Source: Blastocatellia bacterium
GTDB taxonomy: Bacteria; Acidobacteriota; Blastocatellia; HR10; J050
Direction of reading: 5' to 3'
DNA: 64,000 nucleotides
Assembly: GCA_026985075.1 (NCBI GenBank)
Contig: JALSQX010000020.1
Coordinates: forward strand, 158,966-222,965
Shown here: positions 8,465 through 62,598 of the stretch, piece after piece
How the letters are laid out: every line of letters starts with the position of its first letter
Position numbering within the stretch: the stretch's first letter is position 1
The notes under the pieces: model-generated
Told to the model about the DNA's origin: nothing
The model's database searches: none
What the model saw: only the letters and a program-made list of their open reading frames with translations
Made by a program: the position numbers and the translations under genes

Positions 8465-8564
8465 CGTCTCTCCCTCCTCAAAACGATGTCTTGAAAGCGG
8501 TCTGGAGACGAGGAAGCGCTGGCCTCATCGATTGCGCTTCCCCGCCTCCACAACCGGATTTCCT

Positions 8565-11831: not shown

Positions 11832-12231
11832 GATGATCCTCCTGCGAAATATGATTTCCACACATTCACCGATGAACAGATACGCGTTCTGTCACTCATC
11901 GGTTCATCTTTCATCCTTCGAGCATGCTCATGGCTCATGAGCGATTCTTCGACTCTATGAACCCGCTCGCCGCCCTCCATTGGCATAGCCCGCACGCGAT
12001 TGACCGCTCTCCATTCACCACCCACCTTCCGTACCAATGAACGAGATCCCCGAATGCCTCATTCTGTCGAGCGGAGGAGCGGTTGCGGACGTCGCCGAAT
12101 TTCGATCGAACCGCGAATCCCCACTCCATCTCGTCAGTCCTTTGATGGTCTCTTCGGCCATGATCCGCCATGGCCTCTCTCGCCCGATCGAGTTGACGCC
12201 ATTCACCTGATCGAACCCGATGTCGCTGCAT

Positions 12232-14772: not shown

Positions 14773-14870
14773 ATGCCGCTCTCTCCGTTGGTGGGAATCT
14801 CACTTCCTTCACGTTTTGTTTGTCGGGGTCTGTCTCTGAATGCCGCTCTCTCCGTTGGTGGGAATCTCAC
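14773..14870. repeat. Exact 31-bp direct repeat x2 (ATGCCGCTCTCTCCGTTGGTGGGAATCTCAC) separated by a 36-bp spacer
   Basis: The copies lie at 14773..14803 and 14840..14870 and are identical. They sit in the convergent 3' region, and the second copy overlaps the last codons of the 1203-aa membrane gene. There are only two units and no cas genes. Confidence 0.6.
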
Positions 14871-39834: not shown

Positions 39835-40096
39835 TGTTTTCCTCTCCATAGAATCGTCCATTCTCTGAGCTGCCGGTATATTGTTCACATTCCCGGCGAC
39901 CGATTCAAGCGCTGGAATCAAAATTGGGTGTGCTTCAAGACAGCCGGTCGAATCTCTTCCAACTCCGCATCCCACGCCACGTCCCGGTCAATAGGGAACC
40001 GTACCGTCTCGTCGGTGTCTAATGTGTAAGGCATGCCATGGCTGACCCGAGCTACGGCCCAGTGCGACCTGTTCAGGGCTCATCGGCGGAGAGGAG

Positions 40097-41288: not shown

Positions 41289-41951
41289 TTAACTCCGACT
41301 GATTAAGTAGAGCAACGGGAAGAGGAAGATCCACACGATATCGACAAAGTGCCAGTAGAGGCCGGCGACTTCCACCGGATTATAGTATTCGGATGAAAAC
41401 CGCCCGCGCCAGGCCAGCACCACGAGCACGGCTAATACGCTGACGCCGATGATCATGTGAAGGGCATGCATGCCCGTCATGGCGAAATAGAAAGAGAGGA
41501 ACACATAGAGTTGCTGTGGATCGACGTGAAAGCGAATGAACTCATGAGGCGGAACGAAATTGATCCCGGGAATCAAGTGCTCGTGATATTTATGGGAATA
41601 CTCAAACACCTTGATTCCCAGAAACACCGATCCCAGCAGCATAGTCAACAACAAGAATCCGATGAGCGATCGGCGGCGACCCAACTGGGCGCTGCGGACG
41701 GCCAGAGCCATCGTCAGACTGCTACAGATCAACACGGCCGTATTGATGGCGCCAATGCGGTAATCCAGATGGAGACTGCCTTCGGCGAACGCCAACGGGT
41801 ACTGAGAGCGATACACCGCATAGCCGGTGAATAACCCACCAAAGAACAGAACCTCAGTGATCAAAAACGCCCACATGCCCAGCGTGGACGCTTCGAACTG
41901 CTGTTCCAGATCGTCAAACTGGTGCGCTAAGACCGAGTGCGTTTCAGACAA
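41289..41951 (-). CDS. Cytochrome c oxidase subunit III
   Basis: It is a multi-helix membrane protein of the COX3 family, overlapping coxA by 8 bp. Confidence 0.85.
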
Positions 41952-43602
41952 CTTCTGCCTCCTCCGGATAAGGTTTCGATGCGTAGGCGTAGGCCTCTTC
42001 GGTCACTACCGGCGTCCTCTCGAAGTTATGAGGCGGTGGCGGCGAGGGCGTCGTCCACTCCAATCCCTTCGCCTGCCAGGGATTGGCGCCGGCCAGAGGT
42101 CCATACTTCAGCGACCAGAGCAAATAGATGAACGGGATGATATAGCCGACGGCCAGAATGGATGCGCCCGCGGTGGACATCACGTTCAGCACCTGAAATT
42201 CCGGTGGGTACACGTGATAGCGTCGCGGCATGCCCAGATAACCGAGAACGAACTGCGGAAAGAACGTGAGGTTGAACCCGACGAAGATCACCAGGGCAGC
42301 GAACTTAGCCCATCCCTCGGGATAGAGCCGCCCGGTCATCTTCGGCCACCAGAAATGCATGGCGGCCATATATCCCATGATGGCCCCACCAACCATGATG
42401 TAGTGGAAGTGCGCCACGACAAAATAGGTATCGTGCAGGTGAACATCGGTGGCCAGCGTGGCCAGGAACAGTCCGGTCAATCCGCCAATGGTGAACAAGC
42501 CGATGAACCCCAGAGCATAGAGCATGGGCGCCTGATAGGATACGGATCCTTTGTACAGCGTGGCCGTCCAATTGAATACCTTCACCGCCGACGGAATGGC
42601 CACCAGCATGGTCAACACGGAAAAGATCATCCCGGCATAGACGGATTGGCCAGAAGTGAACATGTGATGCCCCCAGACCAGAAATCCGAGAACGGCGATG
42701 GCCAGACTGGAGAAAGCGATGAACGGATACCCGAAAACGCGTTTTCTGGAGAAACAGGCGATCACTTCGCTGATCACCCCCATCGAGGGGAGAATCATAA
42801 TGTACACCGCCGGATGCGAATAGAACCAGAACAGATGCTGAAACAGCAGAGGATCGCCGCCCAATTTGGGATCGAAAATGCCCAGTTTCAGGAGCCGTTC
42901 CAAGGCGACCAGCACGATGGAGATGGCCACCACCGGCGTCCCCAAAATCTGAATGAGGCTGGTCGCATAGTGCGCCCAGACGAATAGCGGCAACCGAAAC
43001 CAGGTCAATCCCGGCGCGCGCATCTTATGGATGGTGACGATGAAGTTGAGCCCGGTCAGGATCGATGAAAATCCCAGAATGAAGACGCCGACGGCGGTGA
43101 GCGCCACGTTGCTGTTGGAGTAAGTGCTGCTGTAGGGAGCATAGAACGTCCAGCCGGTATCCACGCCGCCGAGCGCCATGGCGGCGAACGTGAACACTCC
43201 CCCGATGGAGTAAATGTACCAACTCATCAGATTCAGTCGGGGGAAGGCCACATCCCGAGCACCGATCATCATGGGGATGAGGAAGTTCCCGAACACGGCG
43301 GGGATGGAAGGGATGAGGAAGAAGAAGATCATGGCCACGCCGTGCATGGTGAACAGTTTGTTGTACATCTCTGAGCTCACCACATCCCCCTCCGGGGTCA
43401 TCAATTCCAGGCGAATGAGGGCGGCAAAAATCCCCCCCAGAGCGAAGAAGATGGTGATCGAGATGAGATAGAGAATGCCGATCCGCTTATGATCGGTCGT
43501 CAGCAGCCAGGATTTGAGCCCGTAGTCGACGTTCAAATAGTTCACCGGGGTGGGCTCCCCTGGTGTTCCTGAATGTGCGTTGATCGGTGTGGCGTCCATC
43601 AC
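41944..43602 (-). CDS. Cytochrome c oxidase subunit I (haem-copper oxidase catalytic subunit)
   Basis: It has the COX1 12-TM architecture with conserved His ligands (WAHHMF, HFHYIM). Confidence 0.95.
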
Positions 43603-44552
43603 TGACTCCTTTCCTCTTTGCTGAGTGATTTGAGGTAGGCGATGATTTGCAGGATCCCCCGCTCGCTGATCTGGCCCTGATAGGTGGACATGATCGTGGG
43701 CGAGGGATAGCCAGCGACGATCTTGGCGTTGGGATTCAAAATGGATTCCCGAATGTAGGCTTCGTCGGCGATGACCGTCTCACCACTGAGCAATCTCACC
43801 GGTTTTCCGAACACGCCCACCAATGATGGCCCCCGGCCCGTTCCATCGGCGCGATGACAGGTGTTACACCCGAGCTGATTGAACAATCGCTCGCCCGCCG
43901 CCTCCATCGATTCGCCAACCACGCCACCACTCAGCCACGCCTGATACTCGGCCGGCTCCATCACCGTCACCCATCCCTTCATCTTCGAATGACCGGTCCC
44001 GCAGTATTCGGCGCAGAACAGGTGATAGCGCCCCGTCTTGGTCGCCTGGAACCAGATCGTCGCGTATCGTCCGGGCACCACATCTTTCTTGAGGCGGAAG
44101 GCCGGGATGTAAAAGCTATGGATCACGTCCTCGGAAGCCATGATGAGTTTGATCGGTCGGCCCACGGGAACGTGTAACTCGTTGATCTCCCGCTTCCCAT
44201 TGGTGTGTTGGATGTGCCACATCCACTGCTTCCCCACCACGTATACCTCTTCCGCGTCGGCGGGCACTTCGTTATACTCATCGAAGTAGAGCTTGGCGCC
44301 CCAGGCGAACATGATCATCACCAGCCCCAGGGGAATCACCGACCAGGCGATCTCCAGCGGAGTCGAGCCGTGAATCGACGGCGGGACGTCCGTCTCCGAC
44401 CGACGCCGATATTTGAGGGCGAACACGGTGAGGGAAATGAAGATCAAAGCGGCGAAGAAGACGGCCACGGCGACCAGGAAGAAATAGAGCGCATCGACCT
44501 TCCCGGCCATGGTCGAGGCCGCCTCAGGGAATAGAGGGACTCCTTGCTCCAT
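43599..44552 (-). CDS. Cytochrome c oxidase subunit II with C-terminal cytochrome c domain (caa3-type)
   Basis: The CuA site ([13 protein letters not shown]) and a CNTCH haem-c motif are present. Confidence 0.9.
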
Positions 44553-44634
44553 AAGACCTCAACCTCCACAGACGAAGGGCGGAGCGGCCAGCCAGAGAGG
44601 CTCCCGATCCACTCCGCGATGTAGCTCCGTCCAT

Positions 44635-45555
44635 TCAACCATCTCGATGCTGTGCCGCTCGCTCTTCGATCGGAGCGTTTTTGAATCGCCGATCCCGACG
44701 AAACATGATGACCATGAACGTCCCGAGCAAAACCACCGTGATCAATCCGGCCACCCGTAATACATTCATAATGATGACGCCATACTTTCCCGTGGCCGGG
44801 TCATATTGGCAGCAGTACAGAATCAACTGATCGACCGGCGATCCGATCTGGCCTGCCGAAGCTTCCACTAATCCCAGACGGAGATCTCGGGACGGGTAGT
44901 CGATACCATAAAAGTAACGCGCGATCTTCCCCTCGGCGGTGAGCACCACGATCCCCGCAGCGTGAATGTAGAGATCCTTCTCCGGGTCATAGCGATAATG
45001 AAATCCCACTGCCTGGGTGAGCTGGTCAATGGCCATCTGATCGCCGGTGAGAAAATGCCACCCGGCGGCCGCGCCTGGCCGACCGTAATCCTCGATGTAC
45101 CGTTGTTTCTTCTTGGCCGCCAGAGCGGGCGTCTCGCGAGGATCGAAGCTCACCGTGAGCACAGTGAAATCCTTCCCCACATCCAGAGAGAGCGGCTTCA
45201 AAGCGCGCGCTAATCCGCTGAGCACCATGTTACAGAGCATGGGGCAGCGGTAGTACACCAGAGCCAGGACGACCGGTTTATCGCCGAAGTACTGACGAAG
45301 CGGCACCACCCGTCCCGCTTCATCCCGGAACACGAGATCCAGCGGGATCTGCTCATCCAGCTTCTGGTCGATGCCCACGCCGCGAAACATTCCCGGCATG
45401 TCGTTGGCCGTGAGCCCTTGCGCCCGCACCACTGAGGTGAATCCGAACGGGCCGGAGAGCATCAACCAGAGGGCCGTTACCACCATGCTCAACCCGCCGA
45501 GCCGTCGGTGGCTCTTCACCGGCTGCGTTCGATGAATTCTGAGATCGATATTCAT
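44635..45555 (-). CDS. SCO1/SenC copper chaperone
   Basis: A thioredoxin fold carries CPMLC (CxxxC). Confidence 0.85.
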   Translation of the reverse strand: MNIDLRIHRTQPVKSHRRLGGLSMVVTALWLMLSGPFGFTSVVRAQGLTANDMPGMFRGVGIDQKLDEQIPLDLVFRDEAGRVVPLRQYFGDKPVVLALVYYRCPMLCNMVLSGLARALKPLSLDVGKDFTVLTVSFDPRETPALAAKKKQRYIEDYGRPGAAAGWHFLTGDQMAIDQLTQAVGFHYRYDPEKDLYIHAAGIVVLTAEGKIARYFYGIDYPSRDLRLGLVEASAGQIGSPVDQLILYCCQYDPATGKYGVIIMNVLRVAGLITVVLLGTFMVIMFRRDRRFKNAPIEERAAQHRDG

Positions 45556-45627
45556 AAATCTCCAAGTTTATCTGAACCGAGCCGCGCGAGCAACGTTTGG
45601 GCCGACCGGGCGAGACGTCGGCTCGGT

Positions 45628-46086
45628 TCACCGATCATGATCCGCCCCCCGAGTTCCTGACGAGGAACTCGAATCTGCCGGCGGCTGCGACCTGGCCGGG
45701 AGCCCTCGTTGCAAGATGAGGTCCATAGCCCGATCGATCGGGATATGGACCACGCCCGCTTCCTTATTCACCCAGCCGTAACTATGAAGGACGGTCTCCT
45801 CCCGAGCGCGCAATCGCTCCAGATCCGTCTCCGGCGTCACCTGGAGTCGAGGTTCCGGCGGAAGCGGCCGCTCGATGGTCACCGGGGGAGGCGGCGGCTG
45901 GAGTTTGGCCTCTCGAGCCTCCAGGTAGTCGAACAGCGCCCACATGCCCACCAGCGCCAGGAGGATTAAAACGCCCAGCGAGACGAAGAAGATCACCGCC
46001 GAACGAGGTTGGATGTCGCGCACCTCATGAGCTGGAGATACCGGAGGAGCAGCGTGCCCCTCTCCTGAAGGCTTCGTCTCAGGCAT
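45628..46086 (-). CDS. Small single-TM Pro-rich membrane protein between actF and sco (possible ActG-like or oxidase assembly subunit)
   Basis: The 152-aa protein has one TM helix (VIFFVSLGVLILLALVGMWALF) and PPPPP repeats. It overlaps the actF stop by 8 bp. Confidence 0.45.
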   Translation of the reverse strand: MPETKPSGEGHAAPPVSPAHEVRDIQPRSAVIFFVSLGVLILLALVGMWALFDYLEAREAKLQPPPPPVTIERPLPPEPRLQVTPETDLERLRAREETVLHSYGWVNKEAGVVHIPIDRAMDLILQRGLPARSQPPADSSSSSGTRGADHDR

Positions 46087-47254
46087 GATGCAATGCCTCC
46101 TGTACCCGTGGATCGTGAACCGGAATCATCGACCGCGCCTTCAACTGACCGGCGAATACGGTCATCCAAATCCCTCCCATTCCCACCAGGATGGCCACAT
46201 GCGTCCAGTGAATGGGGATGCCCGTCGGTTGGAACGCGGGCACGACCAGCCAGAACAAGTCGATCAATCGCATGATGATCATCAATCCAGCCACGGCGAC
46301 CAACATCCGCACCTCGCGCTTCGTCCTTCGAAAGAGGAGCAAAAAGAATGGCACGGCAAAATGAAACAGCATCAGCGAGATGGCCACCGCCTGCCAACTC
46401 CCCTTGATGCGATGCAAGTACCAGGGAATCTCTTCGGGCAGATTCCCCGACCAGATGAGCAGAAATTGGGCAAAGGACATGTAAGCCCAGAGGACGATGA
46501 ACGCCAGCATGAGGTTGCCCAGATCGTGAAAGTGCGAACGGGACACGACCTCGGCCAGCGGTTGATGCCGGGCCAGTACGGCCAAGATGATGATGAGAAA
46601 AGCAAATGTCGTCAGCGCCTGCCCGACGACGATGAGGAATCCGTAGATGGTCGAGAACCAATGCGGCTCGAGCGACATGATCCAATCGATGGCCGCAAAG
46701 CTCATGGTCAAGACATAGAGCACGAGGCCCGGACCGCTCACTGCCTGCAATCGACGCGTCAACCAGGGATCGCCGGTGCGGTCTTGTTCCCAGGACCACT
46801 TGGTGAGCACATGGGCCAGCGCGAACCAGATGACGAAGTAGAGCACGGCGCGCGCCCAGAAGAAGGTGACATTGAGATATGGACTCTTATGGCGCAAGAG
46901 CTCGTCCTGGCCGACGACGTCCTTATGCGTCCACTCATAGAGATCGTGCAGTCCGAACGCCAGGAGGGGAAGAAAGAAGATGGCCATCACCGGAAGCGTT
47001 CGGGCTCCCGATTCGAGCAGGCGCTGGATGACGAATCCCCACCGTCCACTGACCAGATGATGCAGCATGAGAATGGCCAGGCACCCCAGCGTGATACTCA
47101 ACCAGAAGAGCGCGGCCAACAGATAGGACTGGAAGAACTGAGATCGATCGAGGAAAAACCCAGCTCCTCCCAACACCAGTCCGACGACGCCCACCAGGAG
47201 TGACCGTCGCTCGATCCGATTCAAGGTGAGGTGGAGTGATGTCAGTTGATTCAT
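46079..47254 (-). CDS. actF: Alternative complex III subunit ActF (NrfD-like membrane subunit)
   Basis: The polytopic membrane protein is about 391 aa. It occupies the ActF position after actE. Confidence 0.7.
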   Translation of the reverse strand: MNQLTSLHLTLNRIERRSLLVGVVGLVLGGAGFFLDRSQFFQSYLLAALFWLSITLGCLAILMLHHLVSGRWGFVIQRLLESGARTLPVMAIFFLPLLAFGLHDLYEWTHKDVVGQDELLRHKSPYLNVTFFWARAVLYFVIWFALAHVLTKWSWEQDRTGDPWLTRRLQAVSGPGLVLYVLTMSFAAIDWIMSLEPHWFSTIYGFLIVVGQALTTFAFLIIILAVLARHQPLAEVVSRSHFHDLGNLMLAFIVLWAYMSFAQFLLIWSGNLPEEIPWYLHRIKGSWQAVAISLMLFHFAVPFFLLLFRRTKREVRMLVAVAGLMIIMRLIDLFWLVVPAFQPTGIPIHWTHVAILVGMGGIWMTVFAGQLKARSMIPVHDPRVQEALHHA

Positions 47255-47268
47255 CGGTGCTCTGTCCG

Positions 47269-47916
47269 TTATTCGTGATTCGTCGTTGGCGATTGATCGC
47301 CGGTGGTCGATCGCGCCCCACTTGATCCTTGCTCTTGGATTCCCGCATCATGCCTCTTGACGGCCGGTGGCGCCAGCAATTTCGCTCGCTCCTCTGGCGG
47401 CACATCGTCGAGCGTAGCATTCTGGCTCAACTGCAACGCCCGAATGTAAGCCACAATCGCCCATCGATCTCGAGGTGGAATGCGCGACGCATAACTGTAC
47501 ATGCGACCGAACCCATTCGTGATCACATCGTAGAAATGCCCCACCGGGGCCTTCTGGAGCCGTTCGATGTGAAAGGAGGGAGGATGCGGGAATCCGCGCT
47601 CGACGATCATCCCTCGACCGCTTCCCGTCCGATCATGACAGACGGCGCAGAAGATATTATAGCGCTCCCGCCCTCGCTCCAGCACCTGGCGAGTGATGGG
47701 AAAAGGAAACGTATCGACCAACTGACCATTCACTTTGCCCGTGTAGAAGTGCTCGTCCAGTCGGAGATGGCCGCGCGCGACCGTCCCTTTGACCAGCGGC
47801 CGGGCCGATCGCCCGTCGGGGAAGAATCGGCTGGCCGCCAGCGGCTTATATCTCGGTTGATCGTGCATATCGAGGCGACAGCCCGACACCAGCACCAGAC
47901 AGAGGCCGACACCCAT
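47269..47916 (-). CDS. actE: Alternative complex III monohaem cytochrome c subunit ActE (predicted lipoprotein)
   Basis: A single CAVCH is present. The ATG at 47916 gives MGVGLCLVLVSGC with a lipobox (LVSGC). The track ORF is N-extended to 48087. Confidence 0.7.
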   Translation of the reverse strand: MGVGLCLVLVSGCRLDMHDQPRYKPLAASRFFPDGRSARPLVKGTVARGHLRLDEHFYTGKVNGQLVDTFPFPITRQVLERGRERYNIFCAVCHDRTGSGRGMIVERGFPHPPSFHIERLQKAPVGHFYDVITNGFGRMYSYASRIPPRDRWAIVAYIRALQLSQNATLDDVPPEERAKLLAPPAVKRHDAGIQEQGSSGARSTTGDQSPTTNHE

Positions 47917-48076
47917 CCCGATCACCACGTTCGTCCACCGTCTCCTCGGCGCCTCGCCTATCGCCTGCGGTCTTTCATCCTTGATGGGACGTTCGCGGCG
48001 CAGGGTCCACGGCCGGCGACCGGCCATCGACCAAAGAGCGCGGACATCGTTCCTGCGACCACCGACGATGTGTCGT

Positions 48077-48613
48077 TCATTCCTCAACTTCGTGCACCTC
48101 CTGAGGTCCTAAACTCCGCAAGAACTGCTCGGTGGCTGCCCGATCGAATTTGGGATCGCGAGCTTCAATGCACAGGAAGAAGCGATCGCGGCTGGCCAGC
48201 TCGAATCGAGAGACATTGAACACCGGATGATGCGGTCGTGGCAATCCATTCAACGCCAGCATGCCGATGACGGCACCGAACGCGCCGAATAGGATGCCCA
48301 TCTCGAAGGTCACGGGGATGAAGGCGGGCCAACTATGGAACGGGCGCCCGCCGACGTTGAGCGGATAGTCGATGACCGAGATCCAATACTGGAGCAGGTA
48401 ACCGCTCAGGGCGCCGACCAGGCCAGCCACCAGCACGCAGAGGGCGACGCGATTGTGGTAGAACCCGATCGCCTCGGGCAGTCCTTCGATGGGATAGGGC
48501 GTATAGGCCTCCATATGGCGATAGCCTTCCCGGTAGGCCCGACGAGCCGCTTCCAGCAGGCTCTCCGGCGCATCAAATTCGGCCATCAATCCATAGATCC
48601 CCGTCGCGTTCAT
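48077..48613 (-). CDS. actD: Alternative complex III subunit ActD (DUF3341 membrane protein)
   Basis: The 178-aa protein has two TM helices. It is conserved with ActD. Confidence 0.75.
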   Translation of the reverse strand: MNATGIYGLMAEFDAPESLLEAARRAYREGYRHMEAYTPYPIEGLPEAIGFYHNRVALCVLVAGLVGALSGYLLQYWISVIDYPLNVGGRPFHSWPAFIPVTFEMGILFGAFGAVIGMLALNGLPRPHHPVFNVSRFELASRDRFFLCIEARDPKFDRAATEQFLRSLGPQEVHEVEE

Positions 48614-48616
48614 CGT

Positions 48617-53071
<4,455 letters not shown>

Positions 53072-53075
<4 letters not shown>

Positions 53076-53728
53076 CGGTGACACACAGAGCAATCGGTCA
53101 ATCTCTCTTTGGGAATGTGATATTCCTTGATGAGTTTTCGGCCCAGGGCGAGTTGATCGCCGGTCGGCTTCCAGTGGAGATTGAACACCTCTTCGCGCGG
53201 ACGGAGATAGCGTTCCGGCTGACGATGACATTGCAAGCACCACTCCATGCGGAGGGTGTTCACCGCCCACATCAACGGCATCTCATCAACCTGTCCATGG
53301 CAGGTCACACAGCCGACACCCTTGTTGACATGAATGCTGTGATCGAAATAGACGAATTCGGGCAGATCATGGACGCGCACCCACTGGAGCGGTTTGCCCG
53401 TCCGCCAGCTCTCCCGCACCGGTTCTAACATGGCGGCATCCTTATGAATCTGGGAATGGCAGGTCATGCAGGTTTCTACCGGAGGGAGTCCGGCAAACCG
53501 ACTCTCCTCTGCCGTGGTGTGACAATACCGACAATCGATGCCGAGTTGACCAACATGATGTCGGTGACTGAAGGGCACCGGTTGCTCGCGAGGAACATTC
53601 ACCCGCGTCACATAAGATGACCGGTCGATGGCCGCCAGCACCGTGGTCAGAATGGCCAGGACGACCACCGCCCCGACGATGCTCAGCTTGGCAATGACGT
53701 TGAAGCTTCGATGAAAAATCTGAGCCAT
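53072..53728 (-). CDS. actA: Alternative complex III pentahaem cytochrome c subunit ActA
   Basis: Five CxxCH motifs are present (CRYCH, CMTCH, CVTCH, CLQCH, CSVCH) after an N-terminal TM anchor. Confidence 0.85.
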
Positions 53729-54227: not shown

Positions 54228-54902
54228 CTAGTGTTTGCCCGGATCGAGGGGCACGCCTCTCCGCTGATAGGTGATGTACGCTTCCAGGGCCAACATCCGG
54301 GGATCGTCGAGAGCCAACGGTTTCCCTTTGACTGGATTCTCGATGCACCAGTTGATCATATCGCGGAGAGCGGCCACCCGCTTCAACTGCGTTTGGAATT
54401 TGGGGTAGGTCTCCGGGTGCGTATTGGCGGCGTCCGGATGACACATATCGCAGGAGATGCCGATGGTTCCGCCGATGGCCTTCCAGTCGTGAAACAGACG
54501 ACGACCTTCCTCCACCAATCGCTTCTGCTCCCGTTGCCAGATCAATCGATCTCGTCGCGTCCACTTGGACGCCTGCTTGGCCTGTTGCTGAGCGTAGCGC
54601 GCCATCAGGCGACGGGCGACCAGGCGGGCCTTCTCCGGGGGCAGGACCTCTCCCTCGCGGACATCGGCGATCTCCATCTGGGTGCGCCCATCGCAGAGTT
54701 GAACGACCAGGTGACCGTCTTCGCTCTGGGGCTGTGGATGTTGGGATGGCGGGCGCTGTTGAGCGGCAGCCAGCGGGATGATATCCGTCACGACGTTCAA
54801 CCAGCTCCCCGGCGCCGCGCTATCGGACGACAGGGGCCACAGCCCACACCAACCGATGATGAACGCGCCCATGATGATCAGCTTGACATGTCGTATTCTC
54901 AT
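54228..54902 (-). CDS. Secreted monohaem c-type cytochrome (single CDMCH), unknown function
   Basis: A signal peptide (MRIRHVKLIIMGAFIIGWCG) and a Gln/Pro-rich linker precede a C-terminal cytochrome c fold. The ATG at 54902 follows a GGGAGGA RBS. Confidence 0.6.
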   Translation of the reverse strand: MRIRHVKLIIMGAFIIGWCGLWPLSSDSAAPGSWLNVVTDIIPLAAAQQRPPSQHPQPQSEDGHLVVQLCDGRTQMEIADVREGEVLPPEKARLVARRLMARYAQQQAKQASKWTRRDRLIWQREQKRLVEEGRRLFHDWKAIGGTIGISCDMCHPDAANTHPETYPKFQTQLKRVAALRDMINWCIENPVKGKPLALDDPRMLALEAYITYQRRGVPLDPGKH

Positions 54903-54938
54903 GGCATCCTCCCTCATCGCGTGCTGGATCTCAAGGTT

Positions 54939-56066
54939 TCAGTACGATGGAAACTGCGGTGCCGGTGGCCGGGCTTCTTTGCCCCAGGATTCCAGATAGG
55001 CCTTGGCCACGGTGATAGGATTCCGGCTCCACAGGTTATAATGCTTGTCCACGTACCCGCTCCCATACACATCTACTGTCCCATCGCCCGTCCCATCGGC
55101 CTCATCGAACGGATCGGCGCGATCCATCTGCACGGTGAGCTTGGGCAGACCCTCGGGCGCGTAAGGCCATGGCCAGGCTGTGGAGAGCATGCCGTGGAAG
55201 TGGATATTCCTGATCCGATTGGTCAACAACTGGTGCGTATGCCCGTGAATGACGGTGACCGATCGGTAGGGGAAAAGAATCTCCTGCACCGCCTCGGCAT
55301 CTTCGGTCCAGAAGTTCCAGGGGCGGTAGTACTTATACAGCGGCGAGTGAGAGAAGACGATGATGGGCGTCTCTGGAGAAACGTTGGCCAGATCCCGCCT
55401 CAACCACTCGCGTCCCTCGGGACCGACTTCGAACCGGCTCTGAATGGGATTATCCAACCCGGCCACCGTCTTCATCCGCTCCATCGGCGTCATGTTTCGC
55501 GCCGTCCAGAAGTCCTTCTCGTTGACGCTCATCAAGACGATGAAGTGAATGCCCTTATGATCGAAGGAATAGTTGGGCGGGCCGAATAGTTCCTGCCATT
55601 TTTCTCCCATGTCCAGGAACCAATCGTGTTCGCCGACCATCATCTTCACCGGCGCTTTCAATTCGCTCAGAATCTGTTTGCCCAGTTCGAGTTCTTGAGG
55701 TTGACCGAGTTGCGCCAGGTCGCCGCCGAACAGCACGAAGTCGGGTTGAGGATCGAGCGCATTGACATCTTCGACGGCGCGCATGGCCGCTTTGACGAAT
55801 CGTTCGTTCAACCGGCGCTCATAAAGATGCGTGTCGGAAATGTAAGCGAACTGAAACAGCGGCTTCTCATCCTCGCTGGCCCGCACGACATCGACCAGTT
55901 GGAACGAATGGGGCGGCAGGACCGTCTTGGCCGTGGTCACGGCGGCGGCCATACCCGCCACCTTGAGGAACGCGCGGCGGTCAAGGCGCTTGACGGCAGC
56001 GAAGAAGTCGGCCCGCTCCTGGCGGTACTGTTGTTCGCGTTGTTTCCATTTCAATGGCCACATCAT
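54939..56066 (-). CDS. Tat-exported calcineurin-like metallophosphoesterase
   Basis: It carries a Tat motif (DRRAFLKVAGMAAAVTTA) and MPE motifs (ISDTHL, GGDL, GEHD). The ATG at 56066 follows a GGGAGG RBS. Confidence 0.75.
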   Translation of the reverse strand: MMWPLKWKQREQQYRQERADFFAAVKRLDRRAFLKVAGMAAAVTTAKTVLPPHSFQLVDVVRASEDEKPLFQFAYISDTHLYERRLNERFVKAAMRAVEDVNALDPQPDFVLFGGDLAQLGQPQELELGKQILSELKAPVKMMVGEHDWFLDMGEKWQELFGPPNYSFDHKGIHFIVLMSVNEKDFWTARNMTPMERMKTVAGLDNPIQSRFEVGPEGREWLRRDLANVSPETPIIVFSHSPLYKYYRPWNFWTEDAEAVQEILFPYRSVTVIHGHTHQLLTNRIRNIHFHGMLSTAWPWPYAPEGLPKLTVQMDRADPFDEADGTGDGTVDVYGSGYVDKHYNLWSRNPITVAKAYLESWGKEARPPAPQFPSY

Positions 56067-56139
56067 GCACCTCCCTGGTGAGGTTTCGTCGGCGATTCGC
56101 CTTTCGAGTCGCGTTTCATCGCTGACGATTCCGGTTCGC

Positions 56140-57351
56140 TCATTTTCCCGGGGCGATGGTGATCTCTCCTCGGGCCAGCGCCCGGGCATAGGTGCTGGTC
56201 AATGTTCTGAGGAACGCCTCCAGATCGTTCATCTCCTGTTCGGTCAGATGAAGCTCGATGATGCCCCCGTCGAGGTTGGGATTCGGTTCGCCGCCTTTGT
56301 TGTAGAATTCGATGACCTCGCGCAACGTCTTCATGCTTCCATCGTGCATGTAGGGACCGGTCAACGCGACATCCCGGAGCGGCGGCGTCTTGAAGGCGCC
56401 CACGTCCTTAGGCTGTCGCGTGACGAGGAAGCGTCCCAATTCGGAGAAGCCTTCGGCGAGCGAGAGCTTATCGAGTTCGGCCGCGGTGAGCTCTCCACGT
56501 TCGGCCAGTTGCTGCACGCGCCGGGCGAGCGTCTCGAAGTTCTTCGTCGCTTTCATGCCCACGCCGATATTGTGATATTTGAAATCGGTGAAGAACGGCG
56601 ACGAAGGGTTGAACTCGTGACAGGTGATGCAGCGTGCTTTCCCTTTGAACAGTTCCCAGCCCCGTTTGGCCGCCGCGCTGATCGCCTTCTCATCCCCAGC
56701 GATGAACCGGTCGAACGGAGCATCGCCCGACAGTTGAGTCCGTTCGAAGGCGGCGATGGCCTGGACGATATGATCGATGGTGATGGGATCTGTGCCCCCG
56801 AACACTTCTCGAAACCGCTTCACATACTCGGGGATCTGTTTGAGCTTGGCGACCACGGCCTCGTGCGAGGGCATGGCCATCTCCACCGGATTGACGAGAG
56901 GCTGCTTAGCTTGATCTTCGAGCGTCTTGGCCCGCCCATCCCAGAACTGCTCTTCGTTGAACATGGCGTTGAGAATGGTGGGCGCATTTCGCGCTCCTTT
57001 CTTTCCTCCCACTCCCTCGGAGACCGGCTTCCCATCGGTGAAGGCGCGCCGCGGATCGTGACAGGTCGCACAACTGACGGTGTTATCGGCAGACAAACGG
57101 GTATCGAAATAGAGGGCCTTGCCGAGGGCGACTTTGGCCTCGGTCATGGGATTGTCCTCGGGGATCATCAATTCCCATAAATCGGCGGGAATGCCGAGAG
57201 GGAACGTCATCTGGAATTCTTTCGCCTGACCGGCCGCCCACGCCGGCCAGGAGAGCGAACCCGGAGAGCGCCCGGATGAAGTCCCCAGGAGGGCGATCAG
57301 TCCCATGACGAGCATCACCATCTTCACCCTGCGGAGAGATCGTCGTCTCAT
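56140..57351 (-). CDS. Di-haem cytochrome c peroxidase (CCP/MauG family)
   Basis: A signal peptide is followed by two haem motifs (CATCH, CITCH) and FYNKGG. The ATG at 57351 follows an AAGGGGA RBS. Confidence 0.85.
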   Translation of the reverse strand: MRRRSLRRVKMVMLVMGLIALLGTSSGRSPGSLSWPAWAAGQAKEFQMTFPLGIPADLWELMIPEDNPMTEAKVALGKALYFDTRLSADNTVSCATCHDPRRAFTDGKPVSEGVGGKKGARNAPTILNAMFNEEQFWDGRAKTLEDQAKQPLVNPVEMAMPSHEAVVAKLKQIPEYVKRFREVFGGTDPITIDHIVQAIAAFERTQLSGDAPFDRFIAGDEKAISAAAKRGWELFKGKARCITCHEFNPSSPFFTDFKYHNIGVGMKATKNFETLARRVQQLAERGELTAAELDKLSLAEGFSELGRFLVTRQPKDVGAFKTPPLRDVALTGPYMHDGSMKTLREVIEFYNKGGEPNPNLDGGIIELHLTEQEMNDLEAFLRTLTSTYARALARGEITIAPGK

Positions 57352-57593
57352 CGCTTCATCCCCTTCACCGCATCGACGAGCCGCGGCACCAACGCCGATT
57401 CCGCGTTGCTCCATCGACGCGTCTTCTGGTACGTTTTTTCCTCGTTCTTCACTGGGTTATCACAACTGACGGCGCGTTTTATTCCCGAAAAATTTCTTCG
57501 GGGAATAATCGGGCGCTTCGATTGTGATACTGGGTGAGGGGTGCTTCTCCTCGTCGCCACCGACGAGGGCAGTGATCGTTGAGCGAGAAAGGG

Positions 57594-58154
57594 ATGATCC
57601 AGCACGAGGCGGAGCCACTGAAGTCACGAAATGTCGATCAGGAGGTGCTGGCATACCTCGACGCCCTCTATGGCTATGCGATGTCATTGGTGCGAAATCC
57701 AACCGAAGCCGAGGATCTGGTGCAAGAAGCCTGCTTGCGAGCCCTCAAAAGCGCCCGGCGACATCCTCCCACCGGCGATCTGAAAGCGTGGCTGTTCACT
57801 ATCTTGCGCAACCTGTGGATCAACCACCAGAGACGGCGGCAGCGCGGACCCGAGTTCATCTCTCTGGGCGCTGAGAGCGACGAACAGGAACTCCCTCTGG
57901 ACGGGATGACCGATCACCGACATCGTCCGGACCGACTGCTGGACCGCAGCTTGCTTCAAGCGAACATTCGAGCCGCCATCGAGAGCCTTCCGGCCATCTT
58001 CCGCGAAATCATTCTCCTGCGTTACGTGGAGGGATTCAGCTACAACCAGATCGCCGGCATTCTTGGCTGCCCGGCGGGAACGGTGATGTCGCGTCTCAAT
58101 CGGGCTCGGGCGGCGCTTCGTCAACGACTGTTGGTCAGTGACCGAGGACCATGA
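57594..58154 (+). CDS. ECF-subfamily RNA polymerase sigma factor (sigma-70 regions 2 and 4)
   Basis: Region 2 (LVQEACLRALK ... WLFTILRNLWINH) and region 4 (LRYVEGFSYNQIAGILGCPAGTVMSRL) are both recognisable. The ATG at 57594 follows GAGAAAGGG. Confidence 0.85.
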   Translation: MIQHEAEPLKSRNVDQEVLAYLDALYGYAMSLVRNPTEAEDLVQEACLRALKSARRHPPTGDLKAWLFTILRNLWINHQRRRQRGPEFISLGAESDEQELPLDGMTDHRHRPDRLLDRSLLQANIRAAIESLPAIFREIILLRYVEGFSYNQIAGILGCPAGTVMSRLNRARAALRQRLLVSDRGP

Positions 58155-59008
58155 CTGGTGAGGGAGAGGCAACGGTGAGCGATCACGTCATCGACCACAT
58201 CACGCTCTATCTGGACGACGAGCTGCAGGAGGAAGAGCGCGTCGCCTTCGAGGCGCACGTCCATCAGTGCCCCGAGTGTTGGGCGCGGCTGGAGGAGGAG
58301 CGTGAATTGGTGATGGCGATTCGCCAGGCTGCCGCGCCGCCTTGCGCTCCCCAATATTTGCGAGCGCGCATTGAAGCCATGCTCGGCCGCTCGTCGCTCA
58401 GGGATGGTGTGAGGAATATTCGTCTCTGGCTTCCCCTCGCCGCAGCGGCCATGGTGATCATGAGCGTGATGGCGTGGCTGGCGATGCGATCTGGCCCTCG
58501 CTCCACCGCTCAACCCTCCGCTTTCGCCCGCCTGGCTGTGGATACCCACCAGAGATACACGCGCGGCCAACTCCCGCTGGAGATCACCAGCCGTTCGCCA
58601 CAGGAGATCTCCAACTGGTTTGCCGGGAAGCTCCCCTTCAATCTCAAGCTCCCGGACTACCCCGAAGGCCCCGGTCAGTCGAAGCCCTACGAGGTGGTGG
58701 GTGCGCGACTGATCGGATTCCAGCAGGATTACGCGGCGTACGTGGCCTATCGCCTGCGCCAACGCCCCATCTCGCTCCTGGTGACCTCCGAGACGGTCGC
58801 CCAACCCACCGGCGGCGAGGAGATCGCCTGGCGGGGATTGCGATTTCACTTTGACGCCATCGACGGCTGGAAAGTGCTCACCTGGTCAGATAACGGCCTC
58901 ACCTATGCCCTGGTGTCCGACTTCGAGGAACGCGGCCAAGCCTCCTGTATCGTGTGCCATCCCGGAGCGCAGGATCGGCCAATGCTGGAGGGATTGAATC
59001 GGCGATGA
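58151..59008 (+). CDS. Zinc-finger (ZAS-type) anti-sigma factor with TM helix and periplasmic domain
   Basis: The HxxxCxxC motif (HVHQCPECW) and one TM helix are present. Its start overlaps the sigma factor stop (ATGA). Confidence 0.7.
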   Translation: MTGEGEATVSDHVIDHITLYLDDELQEEERVAFEAHVHQCPECWARLEEERELVMAIRQAAAPPCAPQYLRARIEAMLGRSSLRDGVRNIRLWLPLAAAAMVIMSVMAWLAMRSGPRSTAQPSAFARLAVDTHQRYTRGQLPLEITSRSPQEISNWFAGKLPFNLKLPDYPEGPGQSKPYEVVGARLIGFQQDYAAYVAYRLRQRPISLLVTSETVAQPTGGEEIAWRGLRFHFDAIDGWKVLTWSDNGLTYALVSDFEERGQASCIVCHPGAQDRPMLEGLNRR

Positions 59009-59178: not shown

Positions 59179-62100
59179 TCATTGGAACGCCACGGAGGAT
59201 GGACGAGGCTTCTCTGAAGCCGTCACCGGCGACTGGGGAGTGGCCGGAGAACGCGACGGGCTGCGAAGTCGTCCGATGCCTCGTCGCTCCCACTTGAGAT
59301 ACTGAGTGGCGACGGCGTGAATTTTCTGGCCGGTGAGCTGATGAAGCCGCTCGGCGTAATGCTCGACGTCAACCGGGCGCTCACCGAGGAAGACGTGCCG
59401 CGCGTAAGCGAGTACGCGGGCCGGATGGGCTTGCAGGCGATCGCGCTGAGCGCCGATGGCGGCATTGATGCCCAACGTCACCATTTCCTCTTCGATGGGA
59501 CCGGCCACCAGCCACTGCAGGTGACGCTGTACCTCAGCGAGCACTTCTGCTTCATCGGTCGCACTCGGCGTCATCCAAACGAAAAAGGCGCTGGCCAGCG
59601 CGCGGGGATCGAACCGGGCGCCCACCCGATAAGCCCATCCGTGGCGATCGCTCAACGACGCGGTCAATCGACCGCCGGGTCCAACGAGGATCTGCTCGAT
59701 GACGTCGAAAATCTCTCGCTCGACGACTTGATGAGCGGGCACGAGGAATCCGATGGCCAGCGCTGGCATCCGAGACGTCGCCGTCTGCTGGCGAGGAGCG
59801 GGTTGGAGTTGAGGAATCCGGGCGCGAAACGTCCGTTGAATCTCGCGGCGATGAAACTGGCGAGCGATGATCGTCGAGATGAGCGTCGATCCATCGGTAT
59901 CTCCTACGACGATCACCAGCGGATATTGACGGCCGATCGTCTGACGGTGCCAGTCTCGCAACCGCTCGGGCGTCAGTTGCTCGACGGTCTCCACCCGTCC
60001 CCATGGAGGCACGCTATAGCTATGCTCACCGACCAGTGCGCGCCAGGCCAGATCGACCGGTCGGGGGGAGCGATGGCGGAGTTCGTAAAGGAGTTCGGCG
60101 CGGGCCCGCTCGACCTCGGCCTCGTCAAACAGGGGGCGTTCCACAATGTCGACGAGCAACTGCAAGGCCTGATCCTGATTGCGCGATAAGACGTGGAGGA
60201 TGAACCCGAAGAAATCCGGCTCGTTCACCCATTGGAGTTCACCGCCTAACTGCTCCAGCTTCATGATCACCTGTCCGGCCGGGAGCGTCACTTCCTGGCC
60301 GCGTTTCAGCTCCTCTCCGGTTTGATAATCCCAGTGGCTCTTGACGCCGCGCCACATGGTGCGCAACATGAGCTCGGTAATGCCATAGTTAGTGGCATCT
60401 TCGAATAAGCGCCCTCCATGAAAAAAGAGGCCCATGGCGATGGTGGGACGCGATTGATCGACGCGCACGTAGGCGCGCGCTCCGTGCAGCACCGAATAAT
60501 TACGGATCGGCTCCGGCTGCGGAGAGAAGATCACCGCCTCCAGTTCCTCACCCGGTCGCCGGCGCTGTCCCTGCCGAATGAGGGGCACGGCCGGCGCCCG
60601 CTTCGCCCGAGCCGCCGAGATCGCTTCATCAAGGCCGGGAACTTTGCTCGCGATCCACTGAGCGAACGTCTCACCGGTCACTCCCTGGGCGGCGACCCGC
60701 CGAGGTAAAACTTCATAGACCGTCGTCCGGGAGAGCGTCAAATACCGGGCCGCTGCGCGGCGTACCTGCTCGGCGGTCACGGCGCGCATCCGTTCCAGGA
60801 CGCGGTCAGCCTCTCGGTAATCGCCGACGGTTGCTTCAGCGACGGCCAGATCTTCGGCCTCTTGCTCCAGACGGGCGCGCCGATCATAAAAGGCGTGCTC
60901 CAGGAGCGCTTGAGCGCGCTGAAGCTCGCCCGGAGAGAGAATCTCGCGCCGCAGGCGCTGAATGGCTTCGAAGAAGACAATTTCAGCCTGGTTGAGATTG
61001 TCCGGAGGCACGCGAAGTTGAAACGTCCACAGCTCCCTGTTGCCGAACTCGATCCTCCGCATGAAGATCTCGCGGACGAGGGGATTGGTTTCCTGAAGCG
61101 CCCAGCGCAATCGCGCCCCGCGACCCGTCATGAGCACCGCCGCCAAGACATCGAGTGCCGGACGATCCGCCGTTCTCACTTCATCGAACCAATAGCCGAT
61201 ATTGAGCAGAGCGGGATCGATCTCGGCGATGCGCTGAGCATACCGGAGTTGCTCTCTGGCCGGCTGCTCGCCCGCCGCCGCCTCCCTCGCTTCCCCACTC
61301 GACTTGGATTTCTGAGCCGTCGATGGCATCTGGTGAGGCTTCTCGCCCCGCTCCTCATCCCCCCTCTCCAGGCCGGGACGCACCGGCCATCCCCCATAGG
61401 CGCGCTGGATCGTCTCCAGGACGGCGAACGGACTGATCGCTCCGACGATGCTGATGACTACGTTCTCCGGCCGATAGCGCGATCGGTAGAAGTCGAGAAC
61501 CTGATCCCGCGTTATCGAGCGCACCTCGCCCCCACCGAGAGCGCGGTCGGCGAGACGATCGCGGAGGATCAACTCCACGAGCGCGGCTTGAGCCCAAACA
61601 GAGGGGGCGGCGAACTCACTCTGACGCTCCTTCTGCATCAATCGAGCCTGACGCTGGACGACCTCCGGCTCGAACAGCGGATGTTGGAGGATGTCTGCCA
61701 GAATCTCAATGGCCGATGTGGCTTTCTCCGGGGAGAGGACGAGCCGATAGCTCGTATACTCGCTGGCGGTGCGCGTCTGAATGACGGCGCCCAGCGCTCG
61801 CAACGCGCGCGCCGCTTGAGATCCCGGACGGGCAGTCGTACCCTGCCAGAGGAGGCGGGCGACCAGCTCGGCGACACCTCGCGCTGAAGCGGGCTCATCC
61901 TGTCGCCCCGCCCGGACGACGGCGGTGATGGCCACCAGCGGCAGGGCGTATTTCTCGCGCACGATGAGGGTGAGTCCGTTGCTCAACGCGAATCGGCTGG
62001 TGGCCGTCCTGGGATCGAGTTCGCGTTTCTTGATCTCACCGCCTGGAGGAATAGGCGCCGACGGCCGCGTCGGCGACGGCTTCTCGGGCGGTTTGGTGGG

Positions 62101-62298
62101 CGGTTTCTTCGTCTCAGTGGGCGGTGGCCTTCGCCGAGTCGGGCGCCGACGGCCACTCTGCGGCCAGCTCCCGGCGGGGAGAACGAGAGCGAACACGATG
62201 AGAAGCGCGACGCCGAGCGTGAGCGTTCTCTTCACCCCCTGAAAAATGGAGCGCACGATGCTATCTTGCGCCACGTCTCTCAACGAGTTCATCCTCAT
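59179..62298 (-). CDS. Membrane-anchored tandem M16 (pitrilysin-fold) protein with both HxxEH zinc sites replaced (predicted non-catalytic)
   Basis: Two M16 + M16_C units are present. The positions equivalent to GxAHxxEHMxFKGT read GVAELVARLLWQGT and GITELMLRTMWRGV. An N-terminal TM helix is followed by a Pro/Lys-rich linker. The ATG at 62298 follows GAGGGG. Confidence 0.7.
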   Translation of the reverse strand: MRMNSLRDVAQDSIVRSIFQGVKRTLTLGVALLIVFALVLPAGSWPQSGRRRPTRRRPPPTETKKPPTKPPEKPSPTRPSAPIPPGGEIKKRELDPRTATSRFALSNGLTLIVREKYALPLVAITAVVRAGRQDEPASARGVAELVARLLWQGTTARPGSQAARALRALGAVIQTRTASEYTSYRLVLSPEKATSAIEILADILQHPLFEPEVVQRQARLMQKERQSEFAAPSVWAQAALVELILRDRLADRALGGGEVRSITRDQVLDFYRSRYRPENVVISIVGAISPFAVLETIQRAYGGWPVRPGLERGDEERGEKPHQMPSTAQKSKSSGEAREAAAGEQPAREQLRYAQRIAEIDPALLNIGYWFDEVRTADRPALDVLAAVLMTGRGARLRWALQETNPLVREIFMRRIEFGNRELWTFQLRVPPDNLNQAEIVFFEAIQRLRREILSPGELQRAQALLEHAFYDRRARLEQEAEDLAVAEATVGDYREADRVLERMRAVTAEQVRRAAARYLTLSRTTVYEVLPRRVAAQGVTGETFAQWIASKVPGLDEAISAARAKRAPAVPLIRQGQRRRPGEELEAVIFSPQPEPIRNYSVLHGARAYVRVDQSRPTIAMGLFFHGGRLFEDATNYGITELMLRTMWRGVKSHWDYQTGEELKRGQEVTLPAGQVIMKLEQLGGELQWVNEPDFFGFILHVLSRNQDQALQLLVDIVERPLFDEAEVERARAELLYELRHRSPRPVDLAWRALVGEHSYSVPPWGRVETVEQLTPERLRDWHRQTIGRQYPLVIVVGDTDGSTLISTIIARQFHRREIQRTFRARIPQLQPAPRQQTATSRMPALAIGFLVPAHQVVEREIFDVIEQILVGPGGRLTASLSDRHGWAYRVGARFDPRALASAFFVWMTPSATDEAEVLAEVQRHLQWLVAGPIEEEMVTLGINAAIGAQRDRLQAHPARVLAYARHVFLGERPVDVEHYAERLHQLTGQKIHAVATQYLKWERRGIGRLRSPSRSPATPQSPVTASEKPRPSSVAFQ

Positions 62299-62598
62299 CC
62301 CCTCGGCGTGGCCCATAGGGTCATGGGTGAGTCCTTTGATCGGTGCTCGCCGGGACGTTCTCCCAGGCCTCGACCGGCGGCTCGGGTCGAACAGCCAGCG
62401 GATCAAAAGTGGGGAAGTATTGGCGGCGCTGCGCCGTTTGGAATTAATGCCCACACCCTAATTGTACCTTTTGGATGAGCGCGGGTCCAGGTGGGCATAT
62501 TCGCCGGATGCATCAATCAAACATTGGGATCTCCTCATTCGAGCGAGGAGGACCATGATCACCGGAGAGCAGCCCTCAGGGCAATGAGCCCCTCCTGC

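Follow-up and report, generated by a model that had tools for sequence, protein, structure and literature searches.

What becomes of a clam-shell peptidase once its zinc site has been lost, and does the protein that is left still have a task? The question is posed by a gene at 59179..62298 (-) of a 64,000-nucleotide stretch of the Blastocatellia bacterium assembly GCA_026985075.1 (contig JALSQX010000020.1, positions 158,966 to 222,965; hereafter the window). The list of open reading frames (ORFs), Pfam matches, an identical database protein (P0001) and a ribosome-binding site identify it as a whole gene for a fused two-unit M16 pseudopeptidase. We consider it probable, with moderate confidence, that the product is an exported, single-chain, four-domain M16 protein which no longer catalyzes anything and instead binds or regulates through its third domain.

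The assignment to M16 is straightforward. Peptidase_M16 (PF00675) and Peptidase_M16_C (PF05193) each match the protein twice (Pfam E 2.7e-28 and 9.4e-37), and an AlphaFold2 model made from 30 homologues (mean predicted local distance difference test score, pLDDT, 85; predicted template modeling score 0.85) displays four well-defined alpha/beta domains (D1 to D4), with disorder at residues 1-23, 40-57 (part of a Pro-rich stretch), 310-348 and in the C-terminal tail. The top Foldseek match in the PDB is a putative zinc protease from P. gingivalis (9ldy, template modeling (TM) scores 0.69/0.77), followed by PqqL, closed-state human insulin-degrading enzyme (TM about 0.65-0.71) and FusC; E values for PqqL (6ofs) and FusC (6b03/6b05) are 1e-33 to 1e-32. 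There are two alpha/beta domains per unit and four in the clam-shell, as in the M16 (pitrilysin/insulinase) fold family. Because the two Pfam families each match twice, the model is confident and the Foldseek matches agree, the window protein is a single-chain four-domain M16 clam-shell. NCBIfam gave only sub-threshold matches, to YfmF/YfmH and pitrilysin, which are uninformative.

The former catalytic half, D1 and D2, covers residues ~96-535 (60694..62013 (-); Pfam M16 at 122-232 and M16_C at 261-466) and aligns with 3amj_C and 4nnz. Between D1 and D2 lies a low-complexity insert (residues 306-350, 61249..61383 (-)), which varies in length and sequence across the family and has pLDDT below 50 at 310-348. 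An inter-half linker delimited by homologue alignment (residues 536-599, 60502..60693 (-)) ends in a conserved FS-x-QPEP-I-R-N-Y-S; this is the family's most conserved stretch, and QP[EL]P[ILV][RK][DN][YF]S[VT] was for that reason chosen as a search pattern. The C-terminal half, D3 and D4 (residues 600-1015, 59254..60501 (-)), aligns with the inactive subunit 3amj_B (E 4.6e-14) and includes D3, the family's most conserved domain.

Neither half retains the zinc-binding HxxEH motif of active M16 enzymes. In phmmer alignments with PDB chains, residues 141-150 (GVAELVARLL) pair with G.sHalEHmm of 4nnz and 3amj_C, and residues 639-648 (GITELMLRTM) with GvaHalEHmm of 3amj_C. This places E144, A147 and R148 at the positions of the first zinc-binding His (His1), the catalytic Glu and the second His (His2) in the N-half, and E642, L645 and R646 at those positions in the C-half. 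The register is identical in a MAFFT alignment of 30 sequences and in an hmmalign alignment of 219 full-length fused relatives to the family profile, 72 of which have HxxEH and 147 of which do not. The N-half motif, GVAELVARLLWQGT (residues 141-154, 61837..61878 (-), model helix 142-152), replaces G-x-x-H-x-x-E-H-M-x-F-K-G-T, and the C-half motif, GITELMLRTMWRGV (residues 639-652, 60343..60384 (-), model helix 640-648), carries the signature G-x-T-E-L-M-L-R. The original prediction, made from the sequence of this stretch, had placed both motifs by eye and read E-L-x-x-R at both HxxEH positions. All three alignment methods confirm the placement, and the reading is correct: the two positions hold ELVAR (144-148) and ELMLR (642-646), and there is no HxxEH string anywhere in the window protein or in 64 family proteins from Blastocatellia genomes.

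Active M16 enzymes also depend on a distal Glu, and on this point the picture is mixed. Both halves still have the distal Glu which, in active M16, serves as the third ligand of the zinc: E224 (61627..61629 (-); Glu in 91 of the 147 HxxEH-less relatives) and E739, but the Glu seven residues upstream of it has been replaced in each, by Q217 and A732. A lone Glu is insufficient to hold zinc without both His residues.

The shared E..R had been taken to mean that both halves changed in the same way and not by random decay. In its full form, this explanation holds that selection converted both halves in parallel to E-L-x-x-R, giving a membrane-tethered peptide chaperone or scaffold which uses the normal M16 chamber and is linked to an anti-sigma factor. 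Both motifs of the window protein do read E-x-x-x-R, and in 15 of the 147 N-halves, on several branches of the tree, His1 has given way to an acidic residue and His2 to Arg or Lys. The two halves, however, have separate histories. In the C-half, E, L and R occupy the three key positions in 111 of the 147 HxxEH-less relatives; among the 64 genome-derived proteins the Glu is invariant (64/64) and the Arg nearly so (61/64), within an almost unchanging G-x-T-E-L-M-L-R. Four relatives which keep the N-half HxxEH (P0050, P0097, P0105 and P0194) already have E-L-M-L-R in the C-half, and Arg stands at the C-half His2 position in 36 of the 72 HxxEH-bearing relatives. Because of these two observations, the C-half E..R is, by the alignments, an old trait of a half that was always inactive, one which predates the loss of HxxEH.

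The N-half motif, by contrast, is variable and among the least conserved stretches of the inactive family. In the 147 HxxEH-less relatives, the His1 position is R in 75, Q in 14, E in 11, H in 9 and other residues in the rest; His2 is R in 77, K in 14, H in 10, Q in 10 or another residue; and the catalytic Glu position is Q in 47, A in 34, E in 28, G in 20 or another residue. The commonest His1/His2 pairs are RR (31), ER (11), RK (11) and QR (9), and E..R is limited to the sub-clade of the window protein and a few scattered sequences. The N-half E..R is best read as one of many outcomes of relaxed selection, perhaps with a mild bias toward Arg at His2. The claim of a common, non-random change in both halves therefore does not stand, since the C-half motif is ancestral and near invariant and the N-half one drifts. 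Taken with the evidence on substrate docking and gene neighborhood given below, this makes parallel conversion unlikely.

Internal duplication was also considered as a source of the shared E..R and rejected. The halves of the window protein are only 22% identical, which excludes a recent duplication as the explanation, and each is closer to the matching subunit of heterodimeric M16B proteins.

We next consider the rest of the active site. An Arg/Tyr pair in D4 (R-x6-Y) completes the M16 active site and is kept in almost all M16 enzymes (PMC12731061). R..Y is present in essentially every HxxEH-bearing relative, the exception being P0097 with R..H, and has decayed in the HxxEH-less clade; in the window protein the alignments place S883 and Y890 here (59629..59652 (-)), the Arg having been lost. 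We scanned for positions with conservation of 85% or more among active relatives but no more than 40% within the clade. In D1 these are the three motif residues H, E and H, then M-x-F-K, the N-A-x-T strand, V220, H248 and a Glu farther upstream (position 213); in D4 they are Q844, Y890, Y908 and G949. Outside HxxEH, all D1 and D4 residues that reach 85% conservation in the HxxEH-bearing relatives have decayed in the clade without it. Such joint decay of sequence-distant parts of a single active site would be hard to explain unless peptidase function had been given up, and the window protein is very probably non-proteolytic, as had been proposed. The same data weaken the accompanying proposal of a chaperone which binds peptides in the M16 chamber: with the N-A-x-T strand and the R/Y pair decayed, the case for peptide binding in the canonical cleft is diminished, and this too speaks against parallel conversion.

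How did such a protein arise? In a word-indexed search, the close relatives were 14 proteins of ~1000 amino acids (31-56% identity), all without HxxEH; more distant fused M16 proteins of 850-900 amino acids carry it. In a HMMER search of 1.84 billion cluster representatives, the matches form a continuum. Relatives with intermediate N-half states (HxxER, HxxQR, RxxEH and QxxEH) exist, and the named basal members, active and partly degenerate alike, are also from Acidobacteriota. A scan of one genome per GTDB species gave 61 loci, nearly all in metagenome-assembled genomes (MAGs) labeled Blastocatellia, Acidobacteriota or Acidobacteria, and at each of these species-level loci the ORF is intact and fits the profile of the family. 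What we call the Blastocatellia TELMLR family has four features: QSGRxR directly after a signal peptide, the absence of HxxEH, G-x-T-E-L-M-L-R within D3, and a VGDTDGS motif. All four are found in the window protein and in most of the 64 loci and about 110 cluster representatives. The family is large, occurs in Acidobacteriota of soil and hot springs and is mainly confined to the class Blastocatellia. Literature searches for Acidobacteria with M16 or insulinase returned nothing relevant, and the literature searched holds no description of the family.

The loci L012, L013, L015, L016, L025, L033, L036, L038 and L045 encode typical family members but come from MAG records ("binchicken" and SRP co-assemblies) whose titles name either "uncultured Heliomicrobium" or "uncultured Clostridia". 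Since the proteins group with those of Blastocatellia, the taxonomy of these records is probably wrong. The sole disrupted copy among the 64 loci is that of L057 (7620..10722 (+)), where the gene is split into two ORFs (7620-10076 and 9820-10722) by a frameshift or an assembly error.

Loss of the catalytic residues and free drift of the N-half motif might suggest a pseudogene-like relic on its way to being lost. The conservation data effectively refute this: at least 61 species-level genomes keep intact, full-length ORFs of ~1000 amino acids, the motifs of D3 and of the N-terminus do not vary, and the mean pairwise identity of D3 within the inactive clade (0.47) is higher than that of any domain in the active relatives. 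In the latter, identities are 0.41 for D1, 0.31 for D2, 0.30 for D3 and 0.33 for D4; in the inactive clade D1 has fallen to 0.32 and D4 to 0.27, and D2 stands at 0.36. Of the 70 positions conserved in at least 85% of the clade, D3 holds 41, D2 14, D1 10 and D4 only 3. As judged from these alignments, the strongest constraint now falls on domain 3 and no longer on domain 1.

The 21 residues conserved specifically in the clade include R612, D614, E642, M644, L645, N707, E720, P793, T801, G803, S804, L806, S808 and R817 in or next to D3, and Y353, E439, R451 and E529 in D2. Besides TELMLR, the conserved elements of D3 are DFFG, LSRN, ERP and VGDTDGS. The last of these (residues 798-804, 59887..59907 (-)), found in the conservation scan and also used as a search pattern, is specific to the clade: conservation of T801, G803 and S804 is 89-99% among the inactive proteins but no higher than 4% among active relatives, and the loop stands where the latter read V-G-D-V-x-P-E. 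Its D-x-D-G-S pattern recalls loops that bind metal or phosphate. In the M16 architecture D1 lies opposite D4, and D2 opposite D3, across the chamber. Because the newly conserved residues are in D3 and D2, which face each other, the new constraint would sit where pseudo-symmetry places the counterpart of the former active site.

Could this counterpart be an active site of a different kind? The protein might still be an enzyme, either a peptidase with an unconventional metal or catalytic site or the carrier of a new activity in D3 around TELMLR and DTDGS. The near-invariant, clade-specific polar residues of D3 (E642, R646, R612, D614, N707, E720 and D800-T-D-G-S) and the distal Glu kept in both halves would be in keeping with this. 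Neither site, however, has a metal triad of His or Cys, the C-half distal position is not conserved (E in 39, D in 34, A in 24 and S in 18 of the 147 HxxEH-less relatives), and no precedent for such an activity was found; we regard a retained or new enzymatic function as quite improbable.

The N-terminus was analyzed in 60 homologues and points to export: across the family, a hydrophobic segment ending in A-x-A runs directly into an invariant, cationic QSGR[GR]R. Of the 60 proteins, 57 have A, S or G at -1, and the residue at -3 is A in 25 and V in 19, the rest being S, G and others; the Gln of QSGR[GR]R has a median position of 27 in the family. The family norm looks like cleavage by signal peptidase I to give a mature protein that begins with QSGRGR and has no dedicated membrane anchor. 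In the window protein, homologue alignment assigns the signal sequence to residues 1-46 (62161..62298 (-)), with a hydrophobic core at about 25-40 (helix 16-38 in the AlphaFold2 model, at low confidence), and the predicted mature N-terminus to QSGRRR at residues 47-52 (62143..62160 (-)), of which Q47, G49, R50 and R52 are invariant in the homologues. A linker rich in Pro, Lys and Thr follows (residues 53-95, 62014..62142 (-), pLDDT below 50-65); across homologues, the 40 residues past QSGRxR average 22% Pro.

The window protein is atypical in having an N-terminal extension of 20 extra residues and S-W-P before the Gln. Pro is unfavorable at -1, which makes cleavage at the conserved site uncertain; signal peptidase may instead cut slightly farther upstream, after L-P-A, or the protein may remain anchored, a point in favor of the membrane-tethered protein of the parallel-conversion account. 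Of the original description, a membrane-anchored protein on a Pro/Lys-rich stalk, the Pro-rich linker holds up, but the anchor is doubtful given the cleavage site that the family displays. We also considered QSGRxR as a general sorting signal and rejected the idea: among the window's ORFs and those of ~1 Mb of family loci, a small sample, no other one with a signal peptide carries the motif, and it looks specific to the family. A mature N-terminal Gln could cyclize to pyroglutamate; at L006, the second gene downstream of the homologue encodes a glutaminyl cyclase.

The start codon affects this region slightly. The minus-strand ORF 59179..62454 holds the whole gene, and the original choice of ATG 62298 gives 1039 amino acids. 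P0001, 100% identical and 1037 amino acids long, begins two codons later at ATG 62292. A GAGGGG ribosome-binding site lies 6 nucleotides upstream of ATG 62292 and directly abuts ATG 62298, for which reason ATG 62292 appears the likelier start. There is no support for a longer, GTG-initiated form of the ORF reaching 62454.

Does the gene neighborhood name a partner? All ORFs of at least 110 amino acids within 6 kb of the gene were clustered across the 64 loci. The neighborhood is not conserved: the best cluster is present at 17 of the 64 loci, which reflects synteny within a sub-clade, and context points to no partner or ligand. In the window, the convergent neighbor is a zf-HC2 anti-sigma factor gene (58151..59008 (+), Pfam), beside which lies an extracytoplasmic function (ECF) sigma factor gene (57579..58154, Pfam). 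A functional link to the anti-sigma factor had been suggested. The pair adjoins the M16 gene only in the window and in L007, an 88%-identical relative, and is absent at the other 62 of the 64 loci; we judge it to lie outside the system of the M16 protein, which removes a further element of the parallel-conversion account. The other neighbors in the window, an outer-membrane beta-barrel protein, a 206-residue protein and a di-haem peroxidase, recur only in the near-identical relative. Elsewhere the gene for P0006 stands between HemN/SecA and a Suf operon, and that for P0009 upstream of NicO, an S9 peptidase and glutaminyl cyclase. In one sub-clade (16 of 64 loci, e.g. L045 1677..2108 (+)), the M16 gene is preceded, at a distance of about 125 nucleotides and in the same orientation, by a gene for a single-pass membrane protein of ~140 amino acids, which the window does not have.

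The neighborhood also bears on the idea that the protein serves a membrane complex, respiratory or other, as a structural scaffold, in the manner of mitochondrial bc1 core 1 and core 2. The bc1 cores are a precedent for paired dead M16 units (PMC12731061), also seen among the PDB matches, and ActB-like Fer4, NrfD and COX1 genes at 41.9-53.3 kb form an alternative-complex-III-like/cytochrome oxidase cluster 6-17 kb away. Against this, the 64 loci show no conserved linkage to respiratory genes, and in the window the M16 gene has a promoter-like site of its own upstream and is separated from the respiratory cluster by several unrelated genes. We think such a scaffold role very unlikely.

How do these observations fit together? 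The alignments demonstrate descent of the family from active fused M16 enzymes, joint loss of constraint on the old site and the rise of D3. The ancestors were active fused enzymes with HxxEH in D1 and Arg/Tyr in D4, in which the E-L-M-L-R helix was already present in D3. In the lineage of the window protein, the zinc ligands, catalytic Glu, MxFK and NAxT substrate-docking elements of D1 and the D4 Arg/Tyr pair all lost constraint together; D3 became the most conserved domain, and a few residues of D2 gained conservation. Peptide cleavage would then be gone, and the canonical D1/D4 cleft would probably no longer bind peptides. At the zinc-binding His sites, E and R would be one helical turn apart (i, i+4), and their ion pair, with the retained distal acidic residue, could fill the empty metal site. 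The functional surface would be on D3, pseudo-symmetric to the old active site and facing D2, and its likeliest use would be the binding of a periplasmic partner protein or peptide, by analogy with BipP and NlpI in E. coli. After Sec export and loss of the signal peptide, the mature QSGRGR terminus and Pro-rich spacer may tether the protein to an anionic component of the envelope.

Several points weigh against this reading. The high conservation of D3 could reflect constraint from folding or from an interface and not a binding site; the domain identities compare two sets which differ in overall divergence; the tree is a simple neighbor-joining tree with midpoint rooting; gene context, as noted, names no partner; and orthology with BipP/YhjJ was rejected (BLASTP E 6e-5 over 38 residues, and a single unit as opposed to two). 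Our confidence in the reading as a whole is accordingly a blend: high for the absence of proteolysis, and a little short of even for the more specific proposal that the window protein is a D3-mediated binder or regulator. A bolder version is more doubtful and is offered as tentative. It holds that the D1/D4 site was abandoned and that the formerly silent D3/D2 site, comprising the TELMLR helix, R612/D614, N707, E720, the VGDTDGS loop and Y353/E439/R451/E529, was turned into a strongly constrained site for a ligand or partner, or even for catalysis, making the protein a family-specific envelope regulator held in place by QSGRGR and the Pro-rich tether.

Elsewhere, the window encodes a respiratory cluster at 41944..53270 (-) with COX1, an NrfD-like protein, a 1077-residue Fer4 protein and a multihaem cytochrome, which resembles alternative complex III with an oxidase. 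At 54228..57414 (-), just before the sigma/anti-sigma pair, are a SoxA/TsdA-like cytochrome c, a metallophosphoesterase and a di-haem cytochrome c peroxidase. Two more genes for large proteases are present: 8565..11861 (-) encodes a tricorn-like one (PD40 repeats, Tricorn C1 and PDZ, S41), and 37414..39975 (-) an AAA protease similar to LonB/LonC. The ORF at 14867..18478 (-) encodes a 1203-residue polytopic membrane protein with dozens of hydrophobic segments and no Pfam match, and it lies where AT skew reaches its window maximum (0.335 at 16-18 kb). Neither Rfam nor a tRNA scan gave any match in the window.

The family offers a good system for asking how a clam-shell protease gets re-used. 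M16 pseudopeptidases are numerous, yet BipP is the only bacterial example with a known job. Here, a series within one phylum leads from active through partly degenerate (HxxER, RxxEH) to fully degenerate proteins and shows both which residues decay together and where new constraint appears, in domain 3. The labels that such proteins now carry ("zinc protease", "insulinase family protein" and "pitrilysin family protein") are probably wrong insofar as they imply an active enzyme.

We compared the window protein with the M16 proteins it most resembles. Degenerate members are widespread: 34,941 of 141,599 UniProt PF00675 proteins, about a quarter, lack HxxEH, and one such degenerate homologue, BipP/YhjJ of the E. 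coli periplasm, inhibits the NlpI-Prc protease system non-proteolytically (PMC11789061). The original statement that a doubly inactive M16 fusion is not characterized was overstated in this respect, but we likewise found no described single chain with both halves inactive. BipP is the best functional analogy for the window protein: both are exported M16-fold proteins without HxxEH and with Arg at His2. They differ in that BipP is a single unit of 498 amino acids, as compared with a fused double unit of ~1040, and lacks the TELMLR, QSGRGR and VGDTDGS signatures. YhjJ (L068 6445..7941 (-)) reads H-A-I-P-R at the motif, where the profile alignment stops right behind His1 and the remaining residues come from extending it without gaps. 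The neighbors of the gene include neither nlpI nor prc.

PqqL (6ofs), FusC (6b03/6b05) and 9ldy share with the window protein the four-domain, single-polypeptide clam-shell and an N-terminal export signal, and the active sequence relatives P0015-P0040 have an architecture like it. PqqL, FusC and 9ldy have HxxEH in D1 and R/Y in D4; the window protein has neither. With the architecture and export signal of the PqqL/FusC type present and the active N-half absent, the window protein is a derived, inactive offshoot of that type.

The best sequence matches of both halves in the PDB are Sph2681/Sph2682 of Sphingomonas A1 (3amj): the N-half matches the active subunit (E 3e-21), and the C-half best matches the inactive subunit 3amj_B. 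That protein is a heterodimer from two genes with one active subunit, however, and its inactive subunit reads S-M-T-A-S, not E-L-M-L-R. Similarity to the mitochondrial proteins is at the level of the family only. Alpha-MPP, whose motif is HxxDR (PMC11266112), and bc1 core 1 and core 2, which in yeast are a pair with both M16 units inactive (PMC12731061), also use catalytically dead M16 units for binding or scaffolding, and alpha-MPP too has Arg at His2. These are separate subunits which assemble with a partner subunit or complex and rely on an extended glycine-rich loop in D4 in place of the R/Y pair, and alpha-MPP has an active partner; by eye, D4 of the window protein has only a short GPGG before R-L (residues 874-879). 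Arg at His2 recurs in BipP, in alpha-MPP, in every second C-half of the active fused relatives and in roughly 50% of the dead N-halves, and it is possible that it represents a general "zinc-substitute" solution in inactive M16 halves.

The window protein is distinct from these inactive M16 proteins in combining a single chain, two dead units, a strong D3 signature and a family-specific N-terminal motif; it is a real but only moderately unusual case of a known phenomenon.

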